From an uncultured Acidimicrobiia bacterium (GTDB lineage Bacteria; Actinomycetota; Acidimicrobiia; Spongiisociales; UBA5794): 64,000 nucleotides of DNA. Location of the stretch: positions 38,771 to 102,770 of the forward strand of contig CAVPHV010000021.1 of assembly GCA_963704825.1 (NCBI GenBank), written 5' to 3'. The notes under the pieces are model-generated. The model did no database searches, was not told where the DNA came from, and worked only from the letters and a program-made list of their open reading frames with translations. Within the stretch, counting starts at the first letter, position 1. Each line of letters opens with the position of its first letter. Positions 13,933 to 55,471 of the stretch are shown here, piece after piece. The position numbers and the translations under genes are program-made.

Positions 13933-13964
13933 AGACCATTCGAGACAGCGTGCCGGGTTTGCAC

Positions 13965-13995: not shown

Positions 13996-14020
13996 AATAC
14001 GCCCCCTTTGAGGTCCGTCC

Positions 14021-38186: not shown

Positions 38187-38227
38187 ACGGTTTTGCCCCC
38201 TCGGAATCCGCTGGGTAGCTTCCGCTT

Positions 38228-39277: not shown

Positions 39278-39384
39278 CCAGCGCGACGGCCGCGGAGACC
39301 CGTACAGCCCGAGGATGTGGGACACTCAGGGCGACGCTCCAAGCCGGCGGCGGCCGAGCCGGGGGCTAGGATGTCACGTTGAGT

Positions 39385-39398
39385 CTATCGATCGATAG
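39385..39398. promoter_or_regulatory. Palindromic operator CTATCGATCGATAG (copy 1), upstream of the aor operon
   Basis: Perfect 14-bp palindrome next to the RBS, 9 bp before the GTG. Same core at 51241-51260 and 51945-51960. Confidence 0.75.
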
Positions 39399-39407
39399 GA
39401 GGCGGGT

Positions 39408-41366
39408 GTGCAGTACGGATACGCAGGCAAAATCCTGCATGTCGACCTGACGAAGGGCACGCTCGACGTCGAGGAACCGTCCGACGACATCTACCGGACC
39501 TACATGGGCGGGAGCGCCCTCGGTCTCTACTACCTCTTCAAGAACACTCCAGCCGGCGCCGACCCCTACGGGCCCGAGAACACACTCGCCTTCATGCTCG
39601 CCGGGGTCACCGGAGCGCCCGTAGCCGGCCAAAGCCGAGCAACGGTCGTCGCCAAGTCACCTCTGACCGGCGGCGTCGGCGACAGCCAAGCCGGCGGCTT
39701 CTGGCCGGCCGAACTCAAGTTCGCCGGATTCGACGGGATCGTGGTGCGCGGGATCTCCCCCAAGCCCGTCTACCTGTGGATCAACCAGGGCGAAGTCGAA
39801 CTGCGCGACGCCGACCACCTCTGGGGCAAGACCACCCTCGAGGTCGACGAGATTCTGCAAGAGGAACTGGGCGACAAGCGGATCCAGGTCGCCCAGATCG
39901 GCCCGGCCGGCGAAAAGCTGGTTCGCTACGCCGCCATCATGAACATGCACGCCCGCGCTCACGGACGCACCGGAATGGGCGCCGTGATGGGAAGCAAGAA
40001 GCTCAAGGCGATCGTGGTTCGCGGCGGCAAGAAGAAGCTGCCGATGGCCGATCCCGACGGGCTCAAGAAGATCATGCAAGGGACACTGCCCAACATCCGA
40101 GGGGATGAGGACGTCTTCGATCTCGCCAAGTACGGGACCATCGGCATCCTGGAGAGCCAAAACGGCTCCGGCGGCCTCCCCACCCGCAACTGGCAGAGCG
40201 GATTCATGGGGTACGACCGCGCCGCGGCCATCGGCGGGGAACGGCTCTACGACGAGCTGTTGCGTGGTGCCCCCGAGGAGACCCAGTTCAAGCAGGGGCG
40301 CGAGACCTGCTACTCGTGTGCGGTGCGGTGCAAACGAGTCGTCCAGGCCGAGTGGGAAGAGCGGATGATCGACCCCGAATACGGTGGACCCGAATACGAA
40401 ACCGCGTCGACCTTTGGGTCGTATTGCGACATCGACGACCTCCACGCCGTCTCCTACGCCAATCAACTGTGCAACGAATACGGCGTCGACACCATCTCGG
40501 CCGGAGCCACGATGGCGTTCGCCATCGAGTGTTTCGAGCGGGGCCTGATCACGGTGGAGGACACCGGCGGTATCGAACTCGGCTGGGGCAAGGCGCCCGA
40601 GATGATCGCCATGCTCGAGTTGACGCTCAAGCGTGAGGGGTTCGGCGACATCCTCGCCGAGGGCTCGGCTGCGGCCGCCGCCCACATCGGCAACGGATCG
40701 ACGGACTTCCTGGTGACGTCGAAGGATCAGGAGTTCCCCGCTCACATGCCTCAGGTGAAGCCGTCGTTGGCCCTCATCTATGCGGTGAATCCCTTCGGAG
40801 CGGATCACCAATCGAGCGAGCATGACCCGATGTACACGCCCGAGGTCATTGCGGACTCCCCGGACAAGTATGGCAAGCGCATGGCCGATATCGGGTTGAC
40901 CGATCCGCAACCCGAGGACGTACTCAACGAGGAGAAGGTGCGCTACGCCCTCACCACCCAATACGCCTACTCAGCGCTCGACACCGCTGATGTGTGCCAG
41001 TTCGTGTTTGGGCCGGCCTGGCAGCTGATGGGGATGGAGGACCTCGCCGACATCGTGACAACCGTCACCGGGGAGGACACCACGGTTGATGATCTCCTCA
41101 CCATCGGGAAGCGCCGATTGAACCTGCTGCGAGCCTTCAACGCTCGCGAGGGCATAACCCGCGAACGCGATACCCTTCCGAAGCGCCTGTTCGAACCGCT
41201 CAGCGGTGGACCGTCGAATGGCAAATCGATCGACCAGAAAGAGTTCGAGGCGGCCCTCGCAATGTATTACCAACAGGCCGGTTGGGATCCGGTCACCGGG
41301 AACCCGCCCCGCGAGACACTCGAAAGCCTTGATCTTGGTTGGGTAGCCGACGAACTCGGCGTCTGA
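39408..41366 (+). CDS. aor: Aldehyde:ferredoxin oxidoreductase (tungstopterin AOR family)
   Basis: Motifs GYAGKILHVDL, AKSPLTGG, GRTGMGAVMGSKKLKAI, CYSCAVRC, GPEYET and CNEYGVDTIS. Confidence 0.93.
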   Translation: MQYGYAGKILHVDLTKGTLDVEEPSDDIYRTYMGGSALGLYYLFKNTPAGADPYGPENTLAFMLAGVTGAPVAGQSRATVVAKSPLTGGVGDSQAGGFWPAELKFAGFDGIVVRGISPKPVYLWINQGEVELRDADHLWGKTTLEVDEILQEELGDKRIQVAQIGPAGEKLVRYAAIMNMHARAHGRTGMGAVMGSKKLKAIVVRGGKKKLPMADPDGLKKIMQGTLPNIRGDEDVFDLAKYGTIGILESQNGSGGLPTRNWQSGFMGYDRAAAIGGERLYDELLRGAPEETQFKQGRETCYSCAVRCKRVVQAEWEERMIDPEYGGPEYETASTFGSYCDIDDLHAVSYANQLCNEYGVDTISAGATMAFAIECFERGLITVEDTGGIELGWGKAPEMIAMLELTLKREGFGDILAEGSAAAAAHIGNGSTDFLVTSKDQEFPAHMPQVKPSLALIYAVNPFGADHQSSEHDPMYTPEVIADSPDKYGKRMADIGLTDPQPEDVLNEEKVRYALTTQYAYSALDTADVCQFVFGPAWQLMGMEDLADIVTTVTGEDTTVDDLLTIGKRRLNLLRAFNAREGITRERDTLPKRLFEPLSGGPSNGKSIDQKEFEAALAMYYQQAGWDPVTGNPPRETLESLDLGWVADELGV

Positions 41367-41416
41367 CCAACCATCAAGGACCTACAACATCAACAGGACA
41401 AGGAGTCGGAGTAGCC

Positions 41417-41878
41417 ATGAAATGGTGGAAGTGGTGGGTGATGATCGGCGCAGTGGCGCTCCTGGCGAGCGCATGCTCCGGTGACGACGAAGCAGACGCC
41501 GAGACCGTGGACTTGCCGCCGCCCGCCGACGACGTGGTGCTGCGGGTGATCGTCGACCAAGAAATCGCCGCCGACTGGACCCTTGAGGAACTCGACTACA
41601 GCCTGCCGTTCGCCACGCTGACCCTCGATGGCGACGAGCAGGAGGGGCCGCTACTCCTCGAGGTACTGGAAGCATCAGGCGTCGTGGATTGGGAATCCAT
41701 GGAGGTGCTTGGTCTCGGCGAGGGTCGAACTTTTGAGGTGACCTTGTTCGTCAACGCACCCGAGGTCAACGAAACCTGGATTCTCGACGTTTCCAACCAG
41801 GGCACACTGAAGCTCGCCGCCGAGAATCTGCCGCGCGAGAAATGGGTACGAGACGTTGCCGAACTCCGGATCAACTGA
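41417..41878 (+). CDS. Lipoprotein, possibly with a molybdopterin-oxidoreductase-like fold
   Basis: Lipobox LASAC. Motifs WTLEEL, EGPLLLEVLEASGV and C-terminal KWVRDVAELRI. Confidence 0.65.
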   Translation: MKWWKWWVMIGAVALLASACSGDDEADAETVDLPPPADDVVLRVIVDQEIAADWTLEELDYSLPFATLTLDGDEQEGPLLLEVLEASGVVDWESMEVLGLGEGRTFEVTLFVNAPEVNETWILDVSNQGTLKLAAENLPREKWVRDVAELRIN

Positions 41879-42587
41879 CCGCGCCGTCATCGGCATCGAC
41901 GACACCGACACCCCCGATGAAGGAGGTACCGGGTGCCTGGCGCGCCGTCTCGTCGGTGAAGTCGAAGCGCTCGGCCTTGGCGTGTCGCTCGGCGTCACCC
42001 GACATCAGTTCTATCAGGGCCCAGAAGTCCCCAAGACGGCGCGCAACTCGGCTGCGGCCATCATCTTCCGCGAGCCGGCCGATCCCGAGGCACTGTTCGA
42101 GGCGGTGACGACCATCGTTTCCCGCGAGTCGATCCGGGGATCCAATCCCGGCGTCGCCATGCTCACCCGCAAGCCACCGCGCCCCGCCGTCCTGTTCGCC
42201 CGCCTCGCTCAGCAGACGATCGTCACTCAGGAGCAGACAGTCACGCTGGCCGCGGCCGTCGAGGTGACCCTGGCCGGCCTGGGCGGAACCGAGGGCGGCA
42301 TCATCGGCGCATTCGGCGCCGCCGTATTGAGAGGCGACGGCCGCGACGGCCGGTTTGTCGGGCTGCGCGGCATTCGCGACGTGTCCGGCGAAATGACCGT
42401 GGCCGATCTGATCGCTGCCACGGACATTGCGGCCGTGGTCAACGTCGACGGATGGGAACCGCTCGAAGCCGAGACAAGCCTCGACATCGGTGACTGGGTT
42501 CGTCCCCGGCTCATCGGGGGTCGTCCCGTCATCGTTGCCCGCGAGGAGAAGGGATCGTGGGTCAATGCAGACACACGCCGTCAGTAG
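41856..42587 (+). CDS. TiaS N-terminal-like (GIDDTD) protein
   Basis: IGIDDTD, VPKTARNS, SNPG and GIIGA resemble the catalytic domain of the agmatidine synthetase TiaS. Too short to include tRNA-binding domains. Confidence 0.6.
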   Translation: MPNSGSTDRAVIGIDDTDTPDEGGTGCLARRLVGEVEALGLGVSLGVTRHQFYQGPEVPKTARNSAAAIIFREPADPEALFEAVTTIVSRESIRGSNPGVAMLTRKPPRPAVLFARLAQQTIVTQEQTVTLAAAVEVTLAGLGGTEGGIIGAFGAAVLRGDGRDGRFVGLRGIRDVSGEMTVADLIAATDIAAVVNVDGWEPLEAETSLDIGDWVRPRLIGGRPVIVAREEKGSWVNADTRRQ

Positions 42588-43146
42588 AGCCACGGCAACC
42601 AGCCGGCCTCTCTACGTCGATGTTCTGCTCGCCCTAGCGATCGGGTTCGTCGCAGCCTTGGCCAAACGATATCTCGACTTCTCCCTCGGCATTCCCGGTC
42701 ACGCCGGAGTGGGGTGGATCGCGGTTTTGGTGCTCGGCCGGATCGTCAACCCGCGGCGCGGCATGGCCACCCTGGCCGGTATCTCGATGGGATTCTGGGG
42801 GATCCCAATCGGACTCGACCACTCCGTTGCCTACAACACGTTGCTCTATGGCGTCTCCGCCGGTCTGCTCGACATGCCGGTCGTGGCGCGGCTGCCGCTG
42901 CGTCGGCCCTGGGGCGCCGCAGTCGCGGGGATCATCGTGCACCTCGGCAAGTACGCCTTCGTCTTCATCAACGCTTGGGTATCAGGCATCGTCCGGCGCG
43001 TCGTCGTGTACGGCCTTGCCGCCGCCCTGGGCAACCACATCCTCTTCGGCGCCCTCGGCGGCTTGCTGGGATGGACGGTGTGGCGCAGCGGGAGGGCCAT
43101 CGCCTACAGGGTGCGGCCATCGCACCGCTCCATCGGCTCGGCGTAG
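42565..43146 (+). CDS. Integral membrane protein, ECF S-component-like
   Basis: About 5-6 hydrophobic helices, LGIPGHAG and NHILFGALGG. Confidence 0.6.
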   Translation: MQTHAVSRATATSRPLYVDVLLALAIGFVAALAKRYLDFSLGIPGHAGVGWIAVLVLGRIVNPRRGMATLAGISMGFWGIPIGLDHSVAYNTLLYGVSAGLLDMPVVARLPLRRPWGAAVAGIIVHLGKYAFVFINAWVSGIVRRVVVYGLAAALGNHILFGALGGLLGWTVWRSGRAIAYRVRPSHRSIGSA

Positions 43147-43154
43147 GTTCTGCG

Positions 43155-44660
43155 GTGGTGCAGGTTTCGATCCCCGGTGCATTGCGCAGATACGCCGCCG
43201 GGCACGAGACGGTTCCCGTTGCCGGCGCCACGGTGGCGGAAGCACTCCGGGCTGCTGCCGTCGCCCATCCCGACCTCCAGATCCGGCTCTTCGATTCGGC
43301 AGGAAGTCTCCACCCGCACCTGACGGTATTCCACGACGATGATCAGGTGCCGCGTGACGAGCTCGACTCGACCCCGGTCGGACCCGACGACCGCGTCGAT
43401 GTGCTGATCGCCATCGTCGGAGGCGCCGAGGATGTGCGGATGCGGGGGTTCCGGGATCGCGCAACCGTCGCGACGGCGCTCGCCACCGCTGTTGCCGGCG
43501 TCGAGCCGCTCCCGGCGGAATCGGTCGAAATCGCCGCCGCCGTCGGACGAGTGCTGGCAGAAGCCGTGGTGAGCGAGGTCGACGTGCCTCCCTTCCGGCG
43601 GGCCACGATGGATGGCTATGCGGTGTGGGCCGAGGCGACGTATGGAGCGTCGCCGTACAACCCGGCGGTGCTCGAGGTCGTCGGTGAAAGCATGCCGGGC
43701 ACCACTCCCCCGGACATGGTTGGACCGGACGCGGCGTGCCGCATCATGACGGGTGCCCCGGTTCCGCACAACGCCGACGCCGTCGTCCGGGCCGAGGACG
43801 CCACTGAACGCGGTTATCACGTCGAGATCACGGCGCCGGTAGCCACCGGCCGCAACGTGGGCCGGATCGGTGAGGACATCGCGATAGGCGCCGAGGTGCT
43901 GCCGGCAGGTCGGCGACTGCTCCCCCAGGACATCGGACTGCTCGCCTCGATCGGGCACGAGCCCGTCGCGGTACACCGCAGGCCTGCGGTGCGGATCATC
44001 GTTTCGGGAGACGAGTTGCTTGCGCCTGGGGCGCGACCTGGAGGCACCAGCATCGTCGACAGCAACTCACCGATGCTCGCCGCCCTCGTGGCCCGCGACG
44101 GCGGCGTCCCCACCGTCGTTCGGCTGCCGGACGACCGCGACGTCATGCGAGCTGCACTGGCCGAACCGGGTGCCGACGTGATCGTTACGGCCGGCGCAGC
44201 TTCGGTCGGACGCGAGGACAACGTCCCGTACCTGGTCGCCGAACTCGGCGAACTGACCATCCACGGTGTTGCCATGCGACCCTCGTCACCGAGTGGCGTC
44301 GGACGGATCGGCTCGGCGCCGGTGCTACTGCTGCCGGGAAACCCGGTCTCATGTCTCGTGGCGTACGACTTCTTTGCCGGACCGGTGATCCGCATCCTCG
44401 GCGGTCGCTCCGAGAGGTGGCCCTACCGCACGGTTCGGCTGCCACTGAGCAAGCGGATCGTGTCCCAGATCGGCCGCACCGACTACGCCAGGGTGACCGT
44501 GAAGGACGGCGCCGTTGAGTCGCTTGCAGTGAGCGGCGCATCGGTCCTTTCGTCCGTCACGCGCGCGACGGGGTTCGTTGTGATCCCGGCCGGTCTCGAG
44601 GGTTACCCGGAGGGCGCCGAAGTGGACGTCCACCTCTATGACGACGAGGCGGCATTGTGA
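43155..44660 (+). CDS. moeA: MoaD/ThiS-MoeA fusion protein
   Basis: N-terminal VQVSIPGALRRY...GATVAEAL...AIVGG (ubiquitin-like) reads in frame into MoeA motifs VDVPPFRRATMDGYAV, IMTGAPVP, SGDEL and LLPGNPVS. Confidence 0.85.
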   Translation: MVQVSIPGALRRYAAGHETVPVAGATVAEALRAAAVAHPDLQIRLFDSAGSLHPHLTVFHDDDQVPRDELDSTPVGPDDRVDVLIAIVGGAEDVRMRGFRDRATVATALATAVAGVEPLPAESVEIAAAVGRVLAEAVVSEVDVPPFRRATMDGYAVWAEATYGASPYNPAVLEVVGESMPGTTPPDMVGPDAACRIMTGAPVPHNADAVVRAEDATERGYHVEITAPVATGRNVGRIGEDIAIGAEVLPAGRRLLPQDIGLLASIGHEPVAVHRRPAVRIIVSGDELLAPGARPGGTSIVDSNSPMLAALVARDGGVPTVVRLPDDRDVMRAALAEPGADVIVTAGAASVGREDNVPYLVAELGELTIHGVAMRPSSPSGVGRIGSAPVLLLPGNPVSCLVAYDFFAGPVIRILGGRSERWPYRTVRLPLSKRIVSQIGRTDYARVTVKDGAVESLAVSGASVLSSVTRATGFVVIPAGLEGYPEGAEVDVHLYDDEAAL

Positions 44661-46591
44661 AGCAGCGGCAGTTCCTCGATGTTGTTGACGAAGCGCTTGC
44701 CCACGAGCGCTTCGACGCTGCGACCGCGCACCTCGCACCGCGCTTCGAACAGATCCCGCTCGACCAAGCTTCGGGACGGGTCCTCGGAGAGGACGTCGTT
44801 GCCGCGGTCGACGTACCCGGGTTTGATCGCAGCAACATGGACGGCTTTGCGGTGCGGGCCACCGACACTCACGGCGCCGAGGAACTCGAGCCGGTCGTCC
44901 TCGCCGTCGCCGACCTGTCTCTGGCCGCCGGGCAAGCCCCTCCCGCAGGGTTCGAGCTTGCGCCCGGCCAGGCCGTCCCCATCGCCACCGGCGCTGTGGT
45001 GCCGCGCGGCGCGGACGCGGTGGTGATGGTCGAGCACACCGAACCCGATGCTGCGGGGGTCAAGATCACCAGGCCGTCGGCACCGGGCGGAAACGTCACC
45101 TTCGCGGGGTCCGACATCGGCCGCGGCGAGATCGTGATGCGACGCGGAACTCGCCTCACGTCACGCGAGACCGGGGTGCTGGCCGCGGTCGGGGTTGCCG
45201 AGGTCACCGTCGTCCGCCGCCCAAGGGTTGCCGTCATCTCGACGGGCGACGAGATCGTGGCGCCGGGGCGGCCGATGGGCGTCGGACAGGTCTACGACTC
45301 CAACCAGCGCATCCTGCTCGACGCCGTTGCCGAACTGGGCGGGGAGCCGATCGGACGCGGCATCGTCCCCGACGACGAGCGCCTCCTCGAGGCGGCGATT
45401 GAGCCACTGCTCACCGGGCCTGATCCCGTTGATGCGGTACTGCTGTCGGGGGGCACATCGAAGGGCGAAGGGGACGTCAATGCCACCGTCGTACATCGTC
45501 TCGCCCAGAGGCTTCCCGACTCTGCAGGCGTTGTCGTCCATGGCGTCGCTCTCAAGCCGGGCAAGCCCATCTTGCTCGCCGTAGTTGCCGAGACGCCGGT
45601 CGTGGTCCTGCCCGGCTTCCCGACCTCGGCGATCTTCACGTTCCATGAGTTCGTCGCTCCCCTGCTCCGCCGTCTCTCGGGCCGAGTTGAGCCCGACCGG
45701 GCGGTGGTTGCAGCGGTGACGCCGCTGCGCATCACCTCGGTTCCCGGCCGGACCCACTACTCGCTGGTCGACCTTGTTGTCGGGTCAGATGGTCTCGCCG
45801 CGTACCCGCTCGGGGCAGGCTCGGGCAGCGTCACCGCATTCGGTCGAGCGGACGGCTTCATCAGGATCCCAGCCAACACCGAGTACGTTGCCGAGGGGGC
45901 GCGAGTCTCGGTTCATCTGCTCCACGCCGAGATCAGGCCGGCCGACCTCGCCGCCATCGGCAGCCACTGCATCGGACTCGACTACCTATTGGGCCTGCTG
46001 ACCGACGAAGGGTTTCGGGTCAAGATGGTGCCGGTCGGCTCGATGGGTGGGATCACCGCGGTCGGCCGCGGCGAGGCCGACGTTGCCGGGATTCACCTCA
46101 TGGACGGGGAAACGGGTGAGTACAACGCACCGTTTCTACCGCCAGGCGTCAGGCTGCTGCGGGGTTATCGGCGCCGTCAGGGAATCGCCTTTCGGAACGG
46201 GGATCCGCTCCTCGACGTCGCCGACGAGGAGGCCCTGTTCGCTGCAGTCCGGCAGGGTTCCGTGCGCATGGTCAATCGCAACCCCGGGGCGGGGACCCGG
46301 ATCATCATCGATCAGCTCCTGGAGGGCCGCACCCCCGACGGATACCTCCACCAGGCCAAGACCCACCACTCCGTCGCCGCCGCCGTCGAACAGGGTCGCG
46401 CCGACTGGGGCGTCACGCTCGATACGGTGGCCGCCTCGGCCGGCCTGGGCTTTCACTTCCTCCAAGACGAGCTCTACGACTTTGCGGTCCCCGAGTCACG
46501 CTGGGACCGCCCGGCGGTCGTGGCCTTCCGCGCCCTGCTCGACGACCCCAAAATAGCGGCCGGCCTGCGCACCCTCGGCTTCGAGCGCTAG
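44657..46591 (+). CDS. moeA: MoeA with C-terminal periplasmic-binding-protein-like (molybdate/tungstate) domain
   Basis: Motifs DVPGFDRSNMDGFAV, STGDEI, SGGTSKG and LPGFPTSA, then GSHC, GSMGG and NRNPGAGTR. Confidence 0.9.
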   Translation: MKQRQFLDVVDEALAHERFDAATAHLAPRFEQIPLDQASGRVLGEDVVAAVDVPGFDRSNMDGFAVRATDTHGAEELEPVVLAVADLSLAAGQAPPAGFELAPGQAVPIATGAVVPRGADAVVMVEHTEPDAAGVKITRPSAPGGNVTFAGSDIGRGEIVMRRGTRLTSRETGVLAAVGVAEVTVVRRPRVAVISTGDEIVAPGRPMGVGQVYDSNQRILLDAVAELGGEPIGRGIVPDDERLLEAAIEPLLTGPDPVDAVLLSGGTSKGEGDVNATVVHRLAQRLPDSAGVVVHGVALKPGKPILLAVVAETPVVVLPGFPTSAIFTFHEFVAPLLRRLSGRVEPDRAVVAAVTPLRITSVPGRTHYSLVDLVVGSDGLAAYPLGAGSGSVTAFGRADGFIRIPANTEYVAEGARVSVHLLHAEIRPADLAAIGSHCIGLDYLLGLLTDEGFRVKMVPVGSMGGITAVGRGEADVAGIHLMDGETGEYNAPFLPPGVRLLRGYRRRQGIAFRNGDPLLDVADEEALFAAVRQGSVRMVNRNPGAGTRIIIDQLLEGRTPDGYLHQAKTHHSVAAAVEQGRADWGVTLDTVAASAGLGFHFLQDELYDFAVPESRWDRPAVVAFRALLDDPKIAAGLRTLGFER

Positions 46592-46601
46592 AGGTCCCAA
46601 T

Positions 46602-46656
46602 CCGTTCTTGCGTGGTTCAGGCGCGCTTTTCGGTACCCCAGCCACGCAAGAACAGG
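46602..46656. repeat. REP-like imperfect palindrome, copy 1
   Basis: gttcttgcgtggtt...ggtacc...gccacgcaagaac. Confidence 0.8.
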
Positions 46657-46692
46657 AAGGGGTTGAATTCGACGCTGTGATTTGGTCCTCTG

Positions 46693-47652: not shown

Positions 47653-47764
47653 TCAAGGTACGGAAAACGGTACCCGAGCCACGCAAGAACAGATTGCGCC
47701 AGCCCCCAAGCCGTTTCGGCGTGGTTGGAGCGCGGTTTTTGGTACCGCAACCACGCAAGAACGG
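47644..47764. repeat. REP-like palindromes, copies 2 (degenerate, about 47644-47692) and 3 (47711-47764)
   Basis: Both contain ggtacc and end in ccacgcaagaac. Copy 3 starts ccgtttcggcgtggtt. Confidence 0.75.
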
Positions 47765-47766
47765 GT

Positions 47767-49581
47767 TTAGAGGTATCCGGCGGCGGTGGCGCGTCTGTCC
47801 AACTCGGCGATGACCTCGGTCTGGACCTCGGCGAAGAATTCCGGGGTGTTGAAATAGGGCAGCGTGGAGTTGACCATCGGCTCGTGGGCTTCGGCGGGCA
47901 GCACGAAGTCGGCCTTGCCAAAACCGGTGCGGCGCTCGACGGCGTAGCCGCGCAGGAAGGTGCGCATCACGACATCGACCAACTCGTCTTCGGTGATAGC
48001 GAGCCCGGCGGCGATCCCGAGCGCCTCCGCTTCGAGGGCCGGGGTTGCGTTGGCGAACTTGCACAGCCCGGTGATGTCGTCCATCAGATACAGCGGACCG
48101 CGGTTGGTGATGGCGTCGACCCAGTAGTCGACACTGGTCTCGCGTTCGATGACGAACAGGAAGAACGTGCGCATCGACATGTGCCCCCCTGCCAGCGCCC
48201 ACGCAAAGCCGGGGTTGGTCTGGGGCTGATACGCCGGGTACTCGACACCCTTCGAGTGCATGGCATAGCCACCCTCGCCGGTTTGGTCGGCGAGCCGCTT
48301 CACCCCTTGGCCCAGCTCGACGAGTCGCCCGGCGGCGATCTCGTGCATGACGTCGAGGACAGCCCCGACATCGCCGTACCCGATGCCGCCCCCCAGCGAC
48401 CCCTCGTTGCGGCGGTTGTACTCCATGGCGTAGCCGATGGTCACCCCGAGCGAAATGGAGTCCATCCCCAGTTCATCGGATAACTCGATGAAGGTGAGCG
48501 CCGGGTCCGGATCGAAGATCCCCAGGTTGGACGACAGCAGTGTGATCGGCTCGAAGTCGACCTTGGCCCGGAACGCCCCGGCCTCACCCTCCGGGCCTTC
48601 GTCGTAGACGTTCTTGTGACACCTGATGCCGCACAGATAACACCCCTCGGCCTTGACGACATAGGGACCCGCCTCAACGCTGGGGCGCAGCAGCGGGACC
48701 GAGGCGTCGGTTCCGCTCGGGGCGAAGTTGAACTCGGGAAGCGATTGCGCCTCCTGCATCATCTTCATCGTGCGCCACGTGCCGCCACGATCATTGGGGA
48801 GGTCGCGGTAGCGGGCACTCCCCTCTCCGAGGTTGATTTCCTTGTTGATGTCCCTCAGGCCGCGCTCCCGACCCGGGTCTGGCCCGTCGGCGGCGATCGC
48901 CCACAGATTCTTCGAGGCCATCACCCCGCCAAAACCACCGCGGGCGCAGAACCGCGCCTTGGGGTCGCCGCTCTCCAATTGGTTGTCGGTGGTGACGGCG
49001 ATGGCGGCGTAGCGCACCGCCTCGTAATGCTCGGCCGCCGGGCCGGTCACGGCGAAATGGGCATCCGGGTACCGGCCGTGGAGGTCGTGAACCCGGTCGT
49101 TGATCATCCGGCCCGCCAGGTCGCTCGCATCGAGAAACTGGAAGACGGGCCCGTCGGCACCGGGCGAGACGTGCAGCAGTGTTGGGTGGTCGCCGCGGCC
49201 GGTGAAAACCACATCATCGATCCCCAGCCCACGAAGCTTGGTACCGAAGTGCCCACTGCCCGCCGACCACATCAGGCCGGGCGCACCAGACGCGGACACT
49301 TTGAGCGGTGAGTAGCCGTGGAAGAATGTGCGAAGCCCGGTCATCACCCGGGTGCCGCTCAGCAACCCGATGTTCATCATCAGCGGGGCGGCCGGGTCGT
49401 AGGGATCGTCGACCTCGACGTCGGCGAGGTACTTCGTCGCCCGGGCGATCCCACCGAGGGCGTCCTCGAAATCCGCGCAGGCGATCCGCTCGAGCCGAAC
49501 GGTACGGGTCGACAGGTCAACGTGGTATCGATTCGCCGAAAATGCGGTGGCCGGCTCCGGCTCACTCACCTGCACGAGCAC
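47767..49581 (-). CDS. Second, divergent AOR-family oxidoreductase
   Basis: Motifs YSPLK, ARGGFGGVMASKNL, CYLCGIRC, DELGMDSIS, GVKRLA and MHSKGVEYPAY. Confidence 0.85.
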   Translation of the reverse strand: MLVQVSEPEPATAFSANRYHVDLSTRTVRLERIACADFEDALGGIARATKYLADVEVDDPYDPAAPLMMNIGLLSGTRVMTGLRTFFHGYSPLKVSASGAPGLMWSAGSGHFGTKLRGLGIDDVVFTGRGDHPTLLHVSPGADGPVFQFLDASDLAGRMINDRVHDLHGRYPDAHFAVTGPAAEHYEAVRYAAIAVTTDNQLESGDPKARFCARGGFGGVMASKNLWAIAADGPDPGRERGLRDINKEINLGEGSARYRDLPNDRGGTWRTMKMMQEAQSLPEFNFAPSGTDASVPLLRPSVEAGPYVVKAEGCYLCGIRCHKNVYDEGPEGEAGAFRAKVDFEPITLLSSNLGIFDPDPALTFIELSDELGMDSISLGVTIGYAMEYNRRNEGSLGGGIGYGDVGAVLDVMHEIAAGRLVELGQGVKRLADQTGEGGYAMHSKGVEYPAYQPQTNPGFAWALAGGHMSMRTFFLFVIERETSVDYWVDAITNRGPLYLMDDITGLCKFANATPALEAEALGIAAGLAITEDELVDVVMRTFLRGYAVERRTGFGKADFVLPAEAHEPMVNSTLPYFNTPEFFAEVQTEVIAELDRRATAAGYL

Positions 49582-49641
49582 CTCCTCGTTCGTCCGCTGG
49601 ACCCCTGCGGGGCCACGAACGCGAGGCTACACCCGTCGGCG

Positions 49642-50982
49642 TCACCCCAGGCTGTGCTCGGCCACGAACCCGTCGAGGATGCCGACCAAGTCCGGTTTAC
49701 CGATCTCCTGCAGGTCGTAGTAGACCCGGGTGTGTGGCTTGTCGATCTTCACGATGCGGGCCAGGTCGATCGGCGTCCCGATGACGACCGCGTCGCAATC
49801 GACCGCGTTGATCGTGGCCTCCAGATCGGCGAGCTGCTCGTCGCTGTATCCCATGGCGGGCAGGATCGTCCCGATCTCGGGGTAGATCTCGAACGTCTCG
49901 GCCAACTTGCCGACCAAATAGGGCCGGGCGTCGACGAGCTCGGTGGCGCCGTACTTGATGGCAGCGACCACCCCGGCGCCGATCTTCATCCCACCGTGGG
50001 TGAGCGTCGGGCCGTCCTCAATCACCAGCACCCGCTTGCCTTTGACCACCGATGGGTCGTCGAGCCGCAGCGTTGATGCGGCTTCCACCACGGTCGCCGT
50101 CGGATTGACCTTGGCGATGTTGGCGCGAACCGCCTCGATGCCGGCAAGATCGGCCGAATCGATCTTGTTGATGATCGCCACGTCGGCGGTGCGCAGGCTG
50201 ACCTCACCCGGGTAGTAGGACAGCTCATGGCCGGGCCGGTGCGGGTCGGTGACGGTGATGGCGAGATCGGCGGCGTAGAACGAGAAGTCGTTGTTGCCCC
50301 CGTCCCACACGATCACGTCACAGCCGTCGGGATCTGCTTCGGCGGCGCGGACAATCGCCTCGTAGTCGACGCCGGCGTAGATCACGTTGCCGCGCACGAT
50401 GTGCGGCTCGTACTCCTCCATCTCTTCGATGGTGCAGTCCTGCTTCTCGAGGTCGGAAAGCTCTGCGAAGCGCTGTACCTTCTGGGCGACCAGGTCGCCG
50501 TACGGCATGGGGTGGCGAATGGCGACGGGCTTGAGGCCCTTCTCCATCAGGATCTCGATGACGCGCCGAGTGGTCTGACTCTTGCCGCATCCGGTCCGCA
50601 CGGCACAGATCGAGATGACCGGCTTGGTGCTCTTGATCTGCGTGTCGGCCGGACCGAGCAGCGTGAACGACGCCCCGGCGGCCTGAACGATGGCGGCCAC
50701 CGCCATCACCTGGTTGTAGGAGATGTCACTGTAGGAAAACGCACACTCGTCGGCACCGAGGTCGACGATCAGGCGGGGCAGCTCCTCTTCCGCATAGATC
50801 GGAATCCCCTGCGGGTAGAGGGGACCGGCGAGCTCGGCCGGATACGTGCGGCCCTCGATCCCCGGGATTTGTTCGGCAGTGAACGCCACCACTTCAACGC
50901 TGTCGTCGTCGCGGTATCGGGTGTTGAAGTTGTGGAAATCGCGGCCCGCGGCCCCGATGATGATGACCCTGCGCTTCGGCAT
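49642..50982 (-). CDS. COG2403-type P-loop enzyme (cyclic 2,3-diphosphoglycerate synthetase-like / arginine synthetase ArcE-like)
   Basis: Motifs IIGAAGRDFHNFN, AVRTGCGKSQT, RHPMPYGDL, WDGGNND and EDGPTLTHG. Confidence 0.82.
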   Translation of the reverse strand: MPKRRVIIIGAAGRDFHNFNTRYRDDDSVEVVAFTAEQIPGIEGRTYPAELAGPLYPQGIPIYAEEELPRLIVDLGADECAFSYSDISYNQVMAVAAIVQAAGASFTLLGPADTQIKSTKPVISICAVRTGCGKSQTTRRVIEILMEKGLKPVAIRHPMPYGDLVAQKVQRFAELSDLEKQDCTIEEMEEYEPHIVRGNVIYAGVDYEAIVRAAEADPDGCDVIVWDGGNNDFSFYAADLAITVTDPHRPGHELSYYPGEVSLRTADVAIINKIDSADLAGIEAVRANIAKVNPTATVVEAASTLRLDDPSVVKGKRVLVIEDGPTLTHGGMKIGAGVVAAIKYGATELVDARPYLVGKLAETFEIYPEIGTILPAMGYSDEQLADLEATINAVDCDAVVIGTPIDLARIVKIDKPHTRVYYDLQEIGKPDLVGILDGFVAEHSLG

Positions 50983-51027
50983 CTATTTGCTCCTCGTTCT
51001 CTTGTTCTGTGGTGTGGGGTCGGGCGG

Positions 51028-51207
51028 TCAGTGGTTGGTCAGAATCAGTAGCGAGGGATCTGCTTCGGTTCCCGCCGAGAATCCGCGCTCGGGCCAGTCG
51101 CGCACCGTCGCGGGTTCGGCAGCTTGCACCATGGTGCCGTCGGCGCGACCAACGATGACCCGGCGTAGCCGACTCCACTCGTTCCAAGAGTTGACGATCT
51201 TCGCCAC
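51028..51207 (-). pseudogene. Truncated amidinotransferase (glycine amidinotransferase-like N-terminus), 59 aa
   Basis: Not in the ORF track. GAGGGG RBS then GTG. Translates as MAKIVNSWNEWSRLRRVIVGRADGTMVQAAEPATVRDWPERGF, then stops. VNSWNEW..L..VIVG is the amidinotransferase N-terminal signature. Confidence 0.7.
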
Positions 51208-51240
51208 AGCTTGCCCCTCTTCTCGATGCTGTCACCACTC

Positions 51241-51260
51241 TACCTATCGATCGATAGGTA
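51241..51260. promoter_or_regulatory. Palindromic operator TACCTATCGATCGATAGGTA (copy 2), between tetR and the divergent operon
   Basis: Perfect 20-bp palindrome, 41 bp upstream of the tetR ATG and 33 bp upstream of the divergent GTG. Confidence 0.82.
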
Positions 51261-51301
51261 TGCGACATCGACTAGCCTATCAAGTGCTAGGGAAGGATTT
51301 C

Positions 51302-51940
51302 ATGGGAACCGCGCCGACGGATATCGCCGACCTCTCAACCCGCCAGCGAATTCTGCGAGAAGCCTCACTCTTGTTCGCCACCAAGGGCTACCACGGGACC
51401 TCGACCCGCGAGATCGCCGCCGCGGTCGGGATCCAACAGCCCTCGCTCTTTCATCACTTCGAGTCAAAGGACGCGATCATGGCCGACCTGATCGCCTTCG
51501 ATCTCGACGAACCCGTCGCCGTCGCCGAACGCGAGGCAGCGGCGGACGGCTCACCGGCGTTGCGCTTCTACCGCTACCTGGTGTGGGACATCGCATTCCT
51601 CTGCAGCTCCCCCTACAACCTCTCGTCGATCGAAACGGTCCGTACCGACCCGGCCTTTGCCTCTGCCGGGCACCGCTTCCGCCGCATCGCCGAGGCTCGG
51701 GAGTCCATGATCGCCCAGGCCGTCGCAGCGGGAGAGTTCATCGAGATCGACCCAACGTTCGCTCAGCTGGCGATCCTCTGGATGATCACGGGAACCGTGA
51801 CCGAGGTGAGCGGCGAACCGGACGATCGAGCCCGAGAGATTGCCCATCAGCTCGCCTCCTTTGCGTTGCGGGCGCTCTTGAAGAACCCGTCACAACTCGA
51901 GGAGATTCAGGCCATTGCCAGCACCAACGACTCTGAGTAG
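51302..51940 (+). CDS. TetR/AcrR-family transcriptional regulator
   Basis: ATG at 51302. HTH: RQRILREASLLFATKGYHGTSTREIAAAVGIQQPSLFHHFESK. Confidence 0.92.
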   Translation: MGTAPTDIADLSTRQRILREASLLFATKGYHGTSTREIAAAVGIQQPSLFHHFESKDAIMADLIAFDLDEPVAVAEREAAADGSPALRFYRYLVWDIAFLCSSPYNLSSIETVRTDPAFASAGHRFRRIAEARESMIAQAVAAGEFIEIDPTFAQLAILWMITGTVTEVSGEPDDRAREIAHQLASFALRALLKNPSQLEEIQAIASTNDSE

Positions 51941-51944
51941 AATA

Positions 51945-51960
51945 CCTATCGATCGATAGG
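51945..51960. promoter_or_regulatory. Palindromic operator CCTATCGATCGATAGG (copy 3), upstream of the aminotransferase-ald operon
   Basis: Perfect 16-bp palindrome in the 40-bp gap between tetR and the aminotransferase gene. Confidence 0.8.
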
Positions 51961-51980
51961 CAAACGAGAGAGGCTACGCC

Positions 51981-53189
51981 GTGCCGAGCCCATTCCTCCA
52001 TCCCTTCACCCCACCACGCAAGGACAAGTTCCTGACCATCACCGGAGGCAAGGACGCCGTCGTCTGGGACGACGCCGGCAAGGAGTACATCGACGGCATG
52101 GCCTCTCTCTGGTACGTCAACGTCGGCCACGGTCGCGCCGAGATGGCCGACGCCATCGGCGCCCAGGCGAAACAGCTCGCCGCATATCACGCCTTCGACC
52201 CCTTCACCAACGAGCCCGCCGAGGCGGCCGCCGCCAAGATCGCTGAACTCTCCCCGTACGAGGGTGCCCGGGTGTTCTTCGGCACCTCAGGGTCGGAGGC
52301 CGTCGACACCGCGATGAAGCTGGCCCGGATCGCCCAGCGGGAAGCCGGCCACCCGGAGAAGACCATCGTCGTCAGCCGAGAACGTGGCTACCACGGCACC
52401 AACTACGGCGGCACCTCGCTCCAAGGCATCGCCCCCAATCGCGAGGGCTTCGGCCCGCTGGTACCCGGCGTGATGAACGTCATGGCCGAGGACGAGGAGG
52501 AGATGAAGCGGGTCTTTGCCGACCACGGCGACGAGATCGCCGCCGTCATCACCGAGCCGGTCCAGGGTGCCGGCGGGGTGTGGCCTCCCCCACCGGGCTA
52601 CCTCCAGTATCTGCGTGACCTGTGCGACGCCTACGGCGCCTACCTCATCCACGACGAGGTCATCACCGGCTTCGGACGCCTTGGCGCCTGGTTCGGCAGC
52701 CAGTTCTACGGCGTCACACCCGACATGATCACCTTCGCCAAGGCCGTGACCTCGGGTTACGTACCCTTCTCCGGGGTCATCGTCGGACCGGACGTTGTCG
52801 CCCCGCTCGAAGCCAACGATGGCTTCCTGCTGCGCACCGGCTACACCTACTCAGGCCATCCGCTTGGCGCCGTGGCCGCCTTGAAGTCAATCGAGATCCA
52901 GGAGCGCGAGGGCCTGCTCGCCCGCGCCACCGCCATCGGGGCTCGCCTCGAACACCGCCTCGACGACCTCCGCAACGACGGGCTCGTGACCAACGTCCGC
53001 GGCGACGGGGCGGTGTGGGGCGTATCACTCCCCGACGGCGTCGATGCCGTCGCAGCCCGTGACGCTCTGCTCGCCGAGGGCGTGATTGTTCGGCCGCTCC
53101 CTCCCCACCTGTTGATGTGCCCGCCACTGGTCATCAGCGACGACCAGATCGACCGTATGGTGGCGGCCATGCGCAAGGTGCTCTCGTGA
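51981..53189 (+). CDS. Class III PLP-dependent aminotransferase (omega-amine:pyruvate type)
   Basis: Motifs YIDGMASLWYVNVGHGR, SGSEAVDTA, GYHG, EPVQGAGG, DEVITGFGRLG, FAKAVTSGY and TYSGHP. Confidence 0.92.
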   Translation: MPSPFLHPFTPPRKDKFLTITGGKDAVVWDDAGKEYIDGMASLWYVNVGHGRAEMADAIGAQAKQLAAYHAFDPFTNEPAEAAAAKIAELSPYEGARVFFGTSGSEAVDTAMKLARIAQREAGHPEKTIVVSRERGYHGTNYGGTSLQGIAPNREGFGPLVPGVMNVMAEDEEEMKRVFADHGDEIAAVITEPVQGAGGVWPPPPGYLQYLRDLCDAYGAYLIHDEVITGFGRLGAWFGSQFYGVTPDMITFAKAVTSGYVPFSGVIVGPDVVAPLEANDGFLLRTGYTYSGHPLGAVAALKSIEIQEREGLLARATAIGARLEHRLDDLRNDGLVTNVRGDGAVWGVSLPDGVDAVAARDALLAEGVIVRPLPPHLLMCPPLVISDDQIDRMVAAMRKVLS

Positions 53190-53223
53190 AGTATCAAGCC
53201 AATCGAGTTCACGGAGGTGAACG

Positions 53224-54345
53224 ATGATCGTCGGAGCCCCCAAGGAGATCAAGAACGCGGAGCGCCGGGTCGGCCTCACCCCCGGCAGCGTTCGTGAATT
53301 GGTGGCGCACGGTCACGACGTGGTTGTCGAGACAGAAGCCGGTGTCGGCATCATGGCCTCCGACGACGACTATCTCGGCGCCGGGGCGGAGATCGCAGCA
53401 ACGGCCGACGAGGTGTGGGAACGAGCCACGCTCATCGTCAAGGTCAAGGAACCCCAGGCGGTGGAACGCGCCAGACTCCGACCCGACCACGTGCTCTTCA
53501 CGTACCTCCACCTGGCACCGGATCCCGACCAGACCAAGGATCTCGTCGCCAGCGGCGCCACCTGCATCGCGTACGAGACCGTCACCGATGCCGCCGGCGG
53601 CCTCCCCCTCCTCGCCCCGATGTCTCAGGTGGCCGGTCGCATGTCCATCCAGGCGGGGGCCCATTGCCTCGAAGCGCCCCACGGGGGAGCCGGCCTGCTG
53701 CTCGGTGGGGTCCCCGGCGTGCATTCGGCCTCCGTTGTAGTGCTCGGCGGCGGCGTCGTCGGCGAACACGCCATCCAGATGGCGGCCGGTCTCGGCGCCG
53801 ACGTCACCGTGCTCGACAACAACGTCACCGTCCTCGCCACACTGGCGCGGCGGTTCGGTGTTGCCCTCGAGACCGTCTACTCGACCCGCACCTCGGTCGA
53901 GGAGTACGTACTCAACGCAGATCTCGTTGTCGGCGCCGTCCTCGTCAAGGGCGACCGGGCGCCGCGTTTGGTGACGGCCGAGATGGTGCGCCAGATGCGG
54001 CCTGGTTCGGTCCTCGTCGATGTTGCTATCGACCAGGGTGGCTGCTTCGAGACCTCCCGGCCAACGACGCACGAGAAGCCGACGTACATCATCGATGAGG
54101 TCGTCCACTACTGCGTCGCCAACATGCCTGGTGCCGTCCCGAAGACGTCGACATACGCGCTCAACAACGTGACGCTGCCGTTCACGCTGGCGCTGGCCGA
54201 CAAGGGCGCCCGCAAGGCCATGCTCGATGACGTGCACCTGCTGGGCGGCCTCAACGTCTGCAACGGGTTCGTCACCGAAGAGCACGTGGCACGGGCTCTC
54301 GGCTACGACTACGTCGATCCAGCCGTAGCTCTTGCCGACGCCTAG
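53224..54345 (+). CDS. ald: Alanine dehydrogenase
   Basis: Motifs [56 protein letters not shown] and [12 protein letters not shown]. Confidence 0.96.
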
Positions 54346-55337
54346 GAAGACATTCCGGCGGCGCGCTCGGCAAGGCCGTTGAGGATTTCGAGCACGACGC
54401 GGTTGCCGAGCAACGAGGTGATCGCGCCCGGTCCGTCATAGGGCGGAGAGATTTCGACGATGTCGGCGCCAACGATGTTCAACTCGCGGCTCAACCGGCG
54501 CACGGTGTCGAGCAGCTGCCGGGCAGTCAGTCCGCCCGGCTCCGGCGTGCCGGTTCCGGGCGCCATGCCGGGGTCGACGACGTCGATGTCGATGGAGAGA
54601 AACACGCCGGACGCACCCTCCCCGGCGTAGCGGACTGCGTCATCCACCACGGCGGGGAGTCCACGCCGCTCGATTTCGGTCATCAGGTAGGAGCGCATCC
54701 CCTGCTCCTTCATCCACGCCATCGTTTCGGGCCCCGGCCAGTAGCCGCGCAGACCGACCTGGACGAAACGATGGCCGGGCACGGCGCCGGACTCGATCAG
54801 GCGCCGCATCGGCGTGCCGTGACCGTAGAGCGCTCCAATCCCGTGAGTCCTTCCCGTATCGGCGTGGGCATCGAAGTGGACGAGGGCGACCTTGCCGAAC
54901 CCATGAACGCGGGCAACGCCGGTGGCGTCGGCGTAGGTGATGGTGTGATCGCCGCCGAGCACAATCGGGATCGACCCTGAGGCGCTGACCTGCTCAACCG
55001 TGGCGGCGATGCGCTCCAAGTCGCCCTCGATGTCGCCCGGTGAGAGCAGCACATCACCGATGTCGACCACACCTTCGAGGGCGTCAAGACCGGTGGGCAG
55101 GTGGGGGCGTTCCCCGTCGGCGCCGAGAGTGTCGCTCTCCCGAATCGCCTTTGGACCAAAGCGGGCGCCGGGCCGGTTGGTGGTGCCCCAATCGAACGGC
55201 GCCCCGATGATCACGGCGCGGGCACCCTGCAGATCGTCCAGAGTCGCGGCGGGAACGCCGGCAAAGGAACTGGTTGCGCTGAACTGGTTCTGTCGTGCCG
55301 CCTCGAATGGGGTTCCTGCAGCCATCTCACTCTCCAA
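54342..55337 (-). CDS. Ureohydrolase (agmatinase/guanidinobutyrase family)
   Basis: Motifs RPGARFGP, GGDHTIT, HFDAHAD, HGTPM and SIDIDVVDP...GTGTPEPGG. The start may be ATG 55325. Confidence 0.9.
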   Translation of the reverse strand: MESEMAAGTPFEAARQNQFSATSSFAGVPAATLDDLQGARAVIIGAPFDWGTTNRPGARFGPKAIRESDTLGADGERPHLPTGLDALEGVVDIGDVLLSPGDIEGDLERIAATVEQVSASGSIPIVLGGDHTITYADATGVARVHGFGKVALVHFDAHADTGRTHGIGALYGHGTPMRRLIESGAVPGHRFVQVGLRGYWPGPETMAWMKEQGMRSYLMTEIERRGLPAVVDDAVRYAGEGASGVFLSIDIDVVDPGMAPGTGTPEPGGLTARQLLDTVRRLSRELNIVGADIVEISPPYDGPGAITSLLGNRVVLEILNGLAERAAGMSS

Positions 55338-55471
55338 CGGGCCGGCGACTATTCAGGCGATGGTCGGGGCCATGGCCGTCACCTCGGCATGATCGCAGGC
55401 TGGTGCAACTTCGACCACGTCCAGGCTGACCTCTCCGGCCGCGGGGATCATGCCTAGCTACGAGGTTCGGT

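Follow-up and report, generated by a model that had tools for sequence, protein, structure and literature searches.

Pseudomonas aeruginosa breaks down arginine, agmatine and polyamines by routes that employ the SpuC transaminase, the NAD-dependent aldehyde dehydrogenase (ALDH) KauB, the hydrolases GbuA and GpuA, and the TetR-type regulator AguR. The ArcE enzyme of Thermococcus kodakarensis (TK2200) converts arginine, ADP and Pi into citrulline, NH3 and ATP; according to the available text of its description (PMC11032458), it is reversible and supports arginine synthesis in vivo, and its homologues, annotated as putative GTPases and weakly resembling cyclic 2,3-diphosphoglycerate (cDPG) synthase, lie near arcB and arcC, are found in genomes with ArcC and without ArcA, and occur in bacteria, Actinomycetota included. 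In Aromatoleum, an enzyme of the aldehyde:ferredoxin oxidoreductase (AOR) family oxidises aldehydes from phenylalanine and benzylamine breakdown, as stated in the accessible part of PMC10413684. Here we analyse a 64,000-base stretch (hereafter the window) of the genome of an uncultured Acidimicrobiia bacterium (assembly GCA_963704825.1, contig CAVPHV010000021.1, positions 38,771 to 102,770), in which one short palindrome recurs beside a tetR gene and before operons with AOR-family, ArcE-like and aminotransferase genes.

We propose that this palindrome is the operator of the TetR-family repressor encoded beside it and that the genes behind it derive from a module for the catabolism of a guanidino or amino compound. 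The regulon appears to be real and conserved, the pathway variant is plausible and may be new, and we give the reading as a whole a probability of roughly 0.55. The present genome (G000; 3,898,187 bases in 25 contigs, GC 65%, 95% complete) was compared chiefly with its sister genome of the same genus (G001), with G040, G051 and G060 of one family (f5), whose TetR is 55% identical to that of G000, and with G424 of another (f9). The regulatory elements and the repressor gene are the following.

39367..39372, plus strand: -10-like hexamer TAGGAT of the putative AOR1 operon promoter, located in an alignment of AOR1 upstream regions
39384..39399: candidate operator site 1, TCTATCGATCGATAGG, between the -10-like element and the AOR1 ribosome-binding site, its last 3 bases overlapping AGGAGG
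51243..51258: candidate operator site 2, CCTATCGATCGATAGG, in the divergent region between tetR and the operon of amidinotransferase remnant, ArcE-like gene and AOR2
51276..51291: imperfect operator copy 2b, CCTATCAAGTGCTAGG, 10 bases 5' of the tetR start
51302..51940, plus strand: TetR-family repressor, 212 aa (TetR_N PF00440, 56.5 bits over a cut-off of 24, residues 17-61)
51915..51943, plus strand: promoter-like TTGCCA-17-TAGAAT of the aminotransferase-ald operon, ending 1 base before operator 3
51945..51960: candidate operator site 3, CCTATCGATCGATAGG, over the expected transcription start of the aminotransferase-ald operon

The 14-mer CTATCGATCGATAG lies at 39385-39398, 51244-51257 and 51946-51959, just where the preliminary description had placed it, and a scan of the window at up to 2 mismatches found no match beyond these three exact sites; 100 shuffles of the window contained a mean of 0.12 matches at this tolerance, and none reached 3. 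That description had named frequent occurrence at random positions as an outcome that would speak against it. At 0-1 mismatch the whole genome holds only the three window sites (reversed-pattern control: 0), and the proposal stands on this point. The genome scan gave 3, 0, 2 and 85 sites at 0, 1, 2 and 3 mismatches, against 0.004, 0.20, 4.7 and 66 expected from a base-composition model: exact copies are far above chance and degenerate copies are at chance level. Both 2-mismatch matches sit on contig C1. We read CTATCGATCGATAG as the core of a longer element, CCTATC-N4-GATAGG, with the consensus CCTATC-RATY-GATAGG; sites 2 and 3 both read CCTATCGATCGATAGG, and site 2 is part of a perfect 18-base palindrome.

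The placement of the sites is that of a repressor operator. Site 3 begins 1 base past TTGCCA-17-TAGAAT, which has 10 of 12 consensus matches and is the one such site in the region, against a shuffle mean of 0.3; site 3 would thus lie on the expected transcription start. Sites 2 and 2b both fall inside the 92-base divergent region 5' of tetR, and G001 carries a matching copy of 2b at the corresponding position. In the region 5' of AOR1, the aligned sequences of G000, G001, G040 and G060 all contain TAGGATG without variation, although a sigma-70 consensus scan of this region returned no site, TAGGAT included; the space between TAGGATG and the ribosome-binding site is filled by the operator only in G000 and G001, and at the same place in G040 and G060 the alignment shows no counterpart of site 1.

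Five other matches to the motif with 1 mismatch exist in the G000 genome, where we estimate that about 5 would occur by chance (reversed-pattern control: 1). The match at C14:232577 was rejected as a further operator as it falls inside a coding region, and that at C18:254287 as it has no counterpart in G001. The latter, CCTATCGGTGAATAGG (C18:254287-254302; position 4288 of locus L102), differs from the motif at one position, stands in the divergent region 5' of a three-gene, pntA-like operon, and may be a chance occurrence.

Where this TetR subfamily occurs in other genomes, the motif tends to occur with it. TetR orthologues were found in 10 of 61 relatives (E <= 1e-20) and, class-wide, in 7 of 401 genomes (E <= 1e-45). 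We inspected 10 of the 13 places with a TetR homologue, that is, all except those in G005 and G024 and the second one in G060, and counted a motif as near tetR if it had at most 1 mismatch in the 12 fixed bases and lay within about 150 bases. Such a motif was present at 8 of the 10 (G000, G001 twice, G012, G040 twice, G051 and G060); in G055 it lies within the cluster, 1.3 kb from tetR, and G002 has none near its TetR homologue. Further places were added by G191 and by the TetR-like gene of G424 at locus L096, where the motif is present; no motif lies near the 47%-identical TetR copy of G424 (L085). Altogether, CCTATC-N4-GATAGG adjoins TetR orthologues or paralogues of 34-90% identity in seven other Acidimicrobiia genomes, where it heads the same gene set, and its spacer prefers R-A-T-Y across sites. 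The helix-turn-helix of the repressor (residues 29-56) is near-invariant in 11 orthologues and paralogues sharing 34-90% identity, while the remaining protein diverges; similarity to Tn10 TetR is confined to the N-terminal 50 residues (NF010319, E 6.8e-8, far under the cut-off). Taken together, it is well supported, and in our judgement very probable, that the palindrome is the operator of the TetR repressor encoded at 51302-51940.

Behind the candidate operators of G000, or convergent with their operons, lie the following genes. The gene map of the preliminary description was borne out by Pfam and NCBIfam.

39408..41366, plus strand: AOR1, AOR family, 652 aa (AFOR_N 257 bits, AFOR_C 377 bits)
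47767..49581, minus strand: AOR2, divergent AOR-family enzyme, 604 aa (AFOR_N 120 bits, AFOR_C 145 bits), last gene of the operator-2 operon
49642..50982, minus strand: ArcE-like P-loop protein (arginine synthetase family, COG2403), 446 aa, assigned by fold and gene context
51028..51207, minus strand: remnant of an L-arginine:glycine-amidinotransferase-family gene, about 59 codons, identified by translation, about 975 bases of the G001 gene being missing
51981..53189, plus strand: class-III (omega-amine:pyruvate type) aminotransferase, 402 aa (Aminotran_3 PF00202, 302 bits)
53224..54345, plus strand: alanine dehydrogenase (Ald; TIGR00518, 504.9 bits over 391.85, equivalog level)
54342..55337, minus strand: arginase-family ureohydrolase, convergent with ald (Arginase PF00491, 282 bits)

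The same kinds of gene recur as targets of the operator across the class: the aminotransferase, alone or with Ald, in G000, G001, G040, G051, G060, G055 and G424; the amidinotransferase in G001, G040, G051, G060, G424 and G191; the ArcE-like gene in G000, G001, G012, G040, G051, G060 and G055; the ureohydrolase in G001, G040 and G060; a Pot-like ABC importer in G040 and G060; and amidase-urease genes in G040 and G191. In G040, G051 and G060, as in G001, a full-length amidinotransferase gene, the ArcE-like gene and AOR2 are co-directional with an operator at the head of the block; in the three f5 genomes, AOR2 converges upon the AOR1 operon, and aminotransferase and Ald diverge from the operator of the block. 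Family f5 has extra operators before the ureohydrolase, the Pot-like ABC importer, tetR and, in G040, amidase-urease. In G424, two operators head the amidinotransferase, the aminotransferase (55% identity) and AOR2 (69%), with Ald divergent, and AOR2 directly follows the aminotransferase after a 30-base gap. G012 has an operator in front of the ArcE-like gene and a gene resembling ornithine carbamoyltransferase (OTC), with tetR, aminotransferase and Ald in the opposite direction. As a separate observation, in genus g34 the operator-headed operon continues after Ald with genes for a 697-aa OYE/TMADH-like flavoprotein and a polysaccharide-deacetylase-family protein (L021/L087, G051 9113-11203; L022, G060); contig C1 of G000 encodes a flavoprotein 68% identical to the g34 one.

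Set beside its relatives, G000 seems to carry a trimmed version of an ancestral regulon. The amidinotransferase gene, already described as a remnant, has undergone a clean internal deletion of about 975 bases relative to G001 (L017 13369-14343), with the operator and the downstream ArcE-like gene intact. Between trkH and the ureohydrolase gene (window 55338-55471 versus L018 10100-11078), G000 is missing a segment that in G001 holds an operator and a 38%-identical ureohydrolase paralogue; accordingly, transcripts from trkAH may extend into the remaining ureohydrolase gene of G000, which according to the window scan is not preceded by the palindrome. A tblastn search of G000 returned no homologue of the urease or the importer. 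What G000 keeps under the operator is tetR, the ArcE-AOR2 pair, aminotransferase-Ald and the AOR1 operon. The preliminary description had drawn one TetR regulon linking the AORs to guanidino or polyamine catabolism; the operator behaviour, its recurrence beside TetR in other genera and the AOR link in three families uphold the regulon, while the deleted amidinotransferase and the palindrome-free ureohydrolase of G000 do not fit the picture as drawn.

The AOR link reaches beyond this genus. G000 has just two AOR-family genes, each within an operator-headed unit, and AOR-family genes, found in 11 of the 401 class genomes, occur in 7/7 TetR-positive genomes versus 4/394 TetR-negative ones, a suggestive difference given that the seven come from five genera and are not independent. 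The link with amidinotransferase, aminotransferase and Ald genes appears conserved across three families and is tightest in G424; our initial alternative, that it is confined to the genus of G000, was overturned by AOR2 in operator-headed operons of two other families. AOR1 orthologues with the MoeA pair are common in Acidimicrobiia bins, and a class-III aminotransferase paralogue stands beside AOR1 orthologues at 6 of 29 other Acidimicrobiia loci and also in G051. In G051, CCTATCGCCCGATAGG, whose spacer departs from RATY, precedes an MFS gene situated before AOR1, and in G166 AOR2 adjoins the ArcE-like gene without a motif. At L059 (17-4463), which belongs to another Acidimicrobiia bin, genes for a class-III aminotransferase and a saccharopine-dehydrogenase-family protein lie directly 5' of an AOR1 orthologue on the same strand.

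All AFOR_N and AFOR_C scores of AOR1 and AOR2 exceed the cut-offs. The best solved relative of AOR1 is the Pyrococcus furiosus AOR (1aor; 366 bits over the full length), with which the CxxCxxxC motif and a later Cys align; AOR2 reaches 83 bits with 1aor, its CxxCxxxC is likewise aligned, and the alignment ends before the fourth Cys. The four Cys ligand positions of the [4Fe-4S] cluster are those we take to be ligands in the P. furiosus enzyme. AOR2 is separated from the ArcE-like gene by 60 bases that contain a GAGGAGG ribosome-binding site and no promoter- or terminator-like site.

The 446-aa ArcE-like protein has no Pfam, NCBIfam or PDB sequence match (PDB at E 0.01) and 3733 representative relatives. 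Its structure model (pLDDT 93) finds as the best Foldseek match the cDPG synthetase of M. fervidus (8oru, E 7.7e-17, 15% identity), followed by LpxK and by HypB/UreG-type P-loop proteins, and the source names within its family are only 'GTPase', 'cyclic 2,3-diphosphoglycerate synthase' or 'hypothetical'. An OTC-like gene lies directly 3' of it in G012, and in G000 two carbamoyltransferase-like genes flank an arcC equivalog that scores 380.8 bits (cut-off 358); no match to the arginine deiminase family (PF02274) was found in this 95% complete genome. Judged by fold, naming and gene context against the traits that the available text of PMC11032458 gives for TK2200, the protein is a putative arginine synthetase, and 'ArcE-like', as proposed earlier, is a fair label; we dropped our initial view that it was unfounded and that the protein is simply a cDPG-synthetase-like GTPase. 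Among the relatives, P0009 carries an N-terminal amino-acid-kinase domain, possibly carbamate-kinase-like, and in P0111 the sequence is split by an intein bearing a LAGLIDADG domain.

The full-length amidinotransferase of G040 matches AGAT (1jdx) at E 5e-78, and also SxtG, HsvA and StrB1. The top PDB matches of the aminotransferase are 6gwi ('putrescine aminotransferase'), amine transaminases and 9j4z ('polyamine:pyruvate transaminase'), with omega-amino-acid:pyruvate transaminases also near; no NCBIfam model reaches its cut-off for this protein. The ureohydrolase passes the agmatinase model TIGR01230 (183.1 over 174.3) and falls under the cut-off of NF002564 (229 under 302), and among solved relatives it scores highest with guanidinopropionase (3nip, 203 bits), above Sll1077-type 'agmatinase 2' (a guanidine hydrolase; 182), proclavaminate amidinohydrolase (179), guanidinobutyrase (179) and SpeB-type agmatinases (145). 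Agmatine and putrescine, which the preliminary description put forward as possible substrates, are candidates only.

From this arrangement we propose the following course of events. The repressor would hold off its own gene through sites 2 and 2b, the divergent operon of amidinotransferase remnant, ArcE-like gene and AOR2 through site 2, the aminotransferase-ald operon through site 3 on its transcription start, and the AOR1 operon with its cofactor-insertion genes through site 1 between the -10 element and the ribosome-binding site, until a small-molecule inducer releases it. The ancestral regulon, which is fuller in related genomes, would serve the nitrogen- and energy-yielding catabolism of an imported guanidino or amino compound. 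Its amidino group would be passed to ornithine by the amidinotransferase or be released as urea by the ureohydrolase; the resulting arginine would be split by ArcE (arginine + ADP + Pi -> citrulline + NH3 + ATP), and OTC and carbamate kinase would regenerate ornithine. The remaining primary amine would be transaminated with pyruvate, alanine dehydrogenase would recycle the alanine, and AOR2, joined in this genus by AOR1, would turn the aldehyde into the acid and pass the electrons to ferredoxin. That an AOR, above all AOR2, oxidises the aldehyde coming from the co-regulated transaminase is a step that we hold to be somewhat favoured. Binding of the palindrome by TetR, the inducer, the direction of flux, the substrate and each enzyme activity are predicted from sequence and gene order, whereas the sites, their uniqueness, their conservation with TetR and the gene order itself are observed.

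A more specific version, which we regard as tentative and on balance doubtful, is an 'amidino shuttle' in O2-respiring Acidimicrobiia: the imported substrate would be a guanidino-amine, agmatine for example, or a guanidino acid, the amidinotransferase-ArcE-OTC-carbamate kinase sequence would yield up to two ATP and return ornithine, and the transaminase with a tungsten AOR would deliver low-potential electrons. It would explain why the amidinotransferase is paired with ArcE, the amidino group passing through ornithine and arginine, at the price of an unusual direction for the amidinotransferase. Such a shuttle would be the first physiological role of AOR-family enzymes in Actinomycetota, and it would make ArcE the energy-conserving exit of guanidino-compound breakdown.

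A number of points weigh against the catabolic reading. With the amidinotransferase a remnant and the ureohydrolase without an operator, the guanidino part cannot run as drawn in G000 itself. G000 has seven full-length NAD(P)-type ALDH genes (PF00171) elsewhere in the genome, so that an AOR is not required for want of a dehydrogenase; the explanation that AOR is needed because ALDHs are absent is ruled out, and the earlier proposal that AOR acts instead of an NAD-dependent dehydrogenase is not forced. The motif precedes AOR1 at only 1 of 29 loci (those of at least 61% identity out of 43, the 14 of at most 38% being dropped), and this one is on the contig of G001 itself; the AOR1 operator is thus a feature of G000 and G001 only. 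In G012, two AOR genes lie on other contigs with no motif near them, and AOR2-type genes have unrelated neighbours in G012, L057 and L058. L094 and L095 (G040:C77 and G051:C11) each hold a third AOR2-type paralogue with a Zn-alcohol dehydrogenase gene behind it and creatininase-family and 2-hydroxyacid dehydrogenase genes nearby. All genomes compared are metagenome bins, and the operator sites of other genomes were located by motif search, which makes the invariance of the 12 fixed bases partly circular and leaves only the placement of the sites and the RATY spacer preference as independent of that search. Lastly, the characterised amidinotransferases that matched, AGAT, SxtG, HsvA and StrB1, are known as biosynthetic enzymes, and the catabolic direction is to that extent assumed.

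The setting was also said to be probably anaerobic, a conclusion that is not warranted: G000 has three genes of the COX1 family (haem-copper oxidases), so the route is not necessarily anaerobic, and we rejected an obligately anaerobic setting as an inference.

The rival that survives best, although we consider it unlikely, accepts the TetR regulon and makes the AORs its passengers, engaged in general aldehyde detoxification or fed by another source of aldehyde, such as an alcohol dehydrogenase. AOR1, the two MoeA genes and a convergent AOR2 form a self-contained island in many Acidimicrobiia without TetR or motif, some AOR2 paralogues are paired with Zn-alcohol dehydrogenases, seven ALDH genes are at hand in G000, and the accessible text of PMC10413684 has the Aromatoleum AOR mainly detoxifying surplus aldehydes. 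Against this, AOR2 sits within an operator-headed operon in three families and 30 bases after the aminotransferase in G424, a new operator arose before AOR1 in this genus, and every TetR-positive genome, as counted above, has an AOR.

Less probable still is a biosynthetic direction, in which AOR would reduce an acid with reduced ferredoxin, the aminotransferase would aminate the product with alanine supplied by Ald, and the amidinotransferase would add an amidino group from ArcE-made arginine, giving a guanidino product. The presumed biosynthetic roles of the matched amidinotransferases would suit it, and the G424 gene order reads well backwards too. The reversibility of ArcE and its arginine synthesis in vivo (available text of PMC11032458) and the ability of AORs to reduce acids (available text of PMC10413684) are likewise in its favour. 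We nevertheless judge this direction improbable: the same operator heads ureohydrolase, ABC importer and amidase-urease genes in G040, G060 and G191, which speak of breakdown and uptake, G000 retains the rest of the regulon despite the loss of the amidinotransferase, and TetR repressors beside their targets generally control catabolism or efflux.

That the palindrome is no TetR operator at all, being instead a leader RNA hairpin, a site of another protein or a small repeat element, is very improbable: a 6-bp stem with a variable 4-base loop would tolerate the observed spacer variation, and site 1 does lie in a probable 5' leader beside a ribosome-binding site, but RNA folding predictions for the three leaders do not outdo those for shuffled sequences (z +0.1, -1.2 and -1.8), the stem bases show no compensatory change (a weak point, as the sites were found by motif), the motif tracks this TetR subfamily between genomes down to its positions upstream of tetR, and, unlike a mobile repeat, it has no copies elsewhere in G000.

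The AOR1 operon and its surroundings contain the following further genes.

41339..41878, plus strand: small predicted lipoprotein of the AOR1 operon, its likely start by translation being an inner Met before MKWWKWW...LASAC
41856..42587, plus strand: TiaS-TCKD / methanogenesis-marker-11-like protein of the AOR1 operon, a weak assignment (PF22641, E 6.6e-4; TIGR03280, E 9.6e-13, below the cut-off)
42714..44660, plus strand: MoaD/ThiS-like domain fused to MoeA (ThiS, MoeA_N, MoCF_biosynth, MoeA_C)
44657..46591, plus strand: MoeA fused to a PBP-like oxyanion-binding domain (NF011068, 702 bits over a cut-off of 534; PBP_like PF12727)
46693..47652, plus strand: AbiEi-like gene, outside the pathway (weak AbiEi_4, AbiEi_1 and REase_MTES_1575 matches)

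The two MoeA genes, one with an oxyanion-binding PBP-like domain, hint at a tungsten cofactor, though only indirectly. In the reading frame of the MoaD-MoeA fusion, the first ~145 codons look untranslated, the 5' translation being Arg-rich and implausible. The small lipoprotein belongs to no Pfam family and is kept 3' of AOR1 in G001, G051, G060 and L054. The pair of lipoprotein and TiaS-TCKD-like genes (41339-42587) stands between the AOR1 and MoeA genes in some genomes only, and is seen also at L017, L054, L089 and L098. The AbiEi-like gene lies between the AOR1 operon and AOR2 in G000 and G001 and is absent from that place in G040 and G060. The public loci nearest to the region as a whole come from uncultured Acidimicrobiia and Acidimicrobiaceae bins.

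Elsewhere in the window (3310-28047, 28275-31706, 36663-39277 and 62733-63884) lie genes for several proteins with RTX calcium-binding repeats and for four NHL-repeat/Big_7 proteins of very large size, 1099 to 2243 aa; one pair lies directly 5' of AOR1, and G001 has a similar pair. At 10425-15437, genes for a transglutaminase-like protease (PF13471), an asparagine-synthase-like protein and a PF14907 nucleotidyltransferase are grouped, a set that resembles lasso-peptide-type maturation genes.

Most Acidimicrobiia, an abundant class, have not been cultured, and defined regulons are scarce among them. Since the operator is short and exact, its cognate repressor clear and its targets few, the case is open to direct testing with purified protein. 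If the reading is right, AOR-family enzymes, on which most work has been done in anaerobes and hyperthermophiles, would have a definite metabolic function in an actinobacterial lineage with aerobic capacity; ArcE, described in 2024, would be tied through the amidinotransferase to the use of guanidino compounds; and an AOR would occupy the operon position that NAD-dependent ALDHs hold in the polyamine and arginine routes of Pseudomonas. The route was earlier said not to be recognised in Actinomycetota, and this needs a qualification: an earlier paper (PMC7325909) records AOR genes in other Actinobacteria, though in its available text not in this context. Among open-access papers and preprints we found none on AOR in Acidimicrobiia, on AOR with putrescine, an aminotransferase and tungsten, on cDPG synthetase with amidinotransferase or on COG2403, and none that joins these parts.

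Among the described systems, the locus corresponds to the ArcE pathway of T. kodakarensis (with ArcB and ArcC) in having a ~440-aa P-loop protein named 'GTPase' or 'cDPG synthase' with a distant cDPG synthetase fold (available text of PMC11032458). It does so further in the OTC-like neighbour in G012, the amino-acid-kinase fusion in one relative, and the carbamate kinase gene without an arginine deiminase gene; it differs in that the ArcE-like gene shares an operon with an amidinotransferase and an AOR-family gene under a TetR operator, in an organism capable of O2 respiration.

The AorABC enzyme of Aromatoleum aromaticum likewise places an AOR-family enzyme in a mesophilic, non-fermenting bacterium. 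According to the accessible text of PMC10413684, it handles aldehydes derived from amines and amino acids alongside NAD-dependent dehydrogenases, is oxygen-tolerant, has Fe-S and FAD subunits, and uses NAD; in a Pfam scan, no genes for such subunits accompany AOR1 or AOR2. The Aromatoleum substrates are aromatic, and no TetR operator and no transaminase-Ald or ArcE link is known for that enzyme. AOR1 keeps the Fe-S cysteine motif of P. furiosus AOR (1aor) and the Glu and His aligned with it. AOR1 is ~45 residues longer than the P. furiosus enzyme and AOR2 is far more distant from it, and the setting of that enzyme, peptide fermentation in a hyperthermophile, is unlike the present one.

The repressor side resembles TetR and tetO in its TetR_N helix-turn-helix, with the recognition stretch QPSLFHHF, and in the inverted CTATC/GATAG half-sites; the half-sites are spaced by 4 bases here and by 3 in tetO. 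The P. aeruginosa routes, in turn, have in common with the proposed module a pyruvate-dependent omega-transaminase followed by aldehyde oxidation, a ureohydrolase that frees urea and a TetR-family repressor of agmatine genes, and it is among the enzyme groups of those routes that the aminotransferase and the ureohydrolase find their closest solved relatives. The module differs from them in that an AOR-family gene takes the operon position of KauB, and in that ArcE, amidinotransferase and Ald are not part of the Pseudomonas routes.

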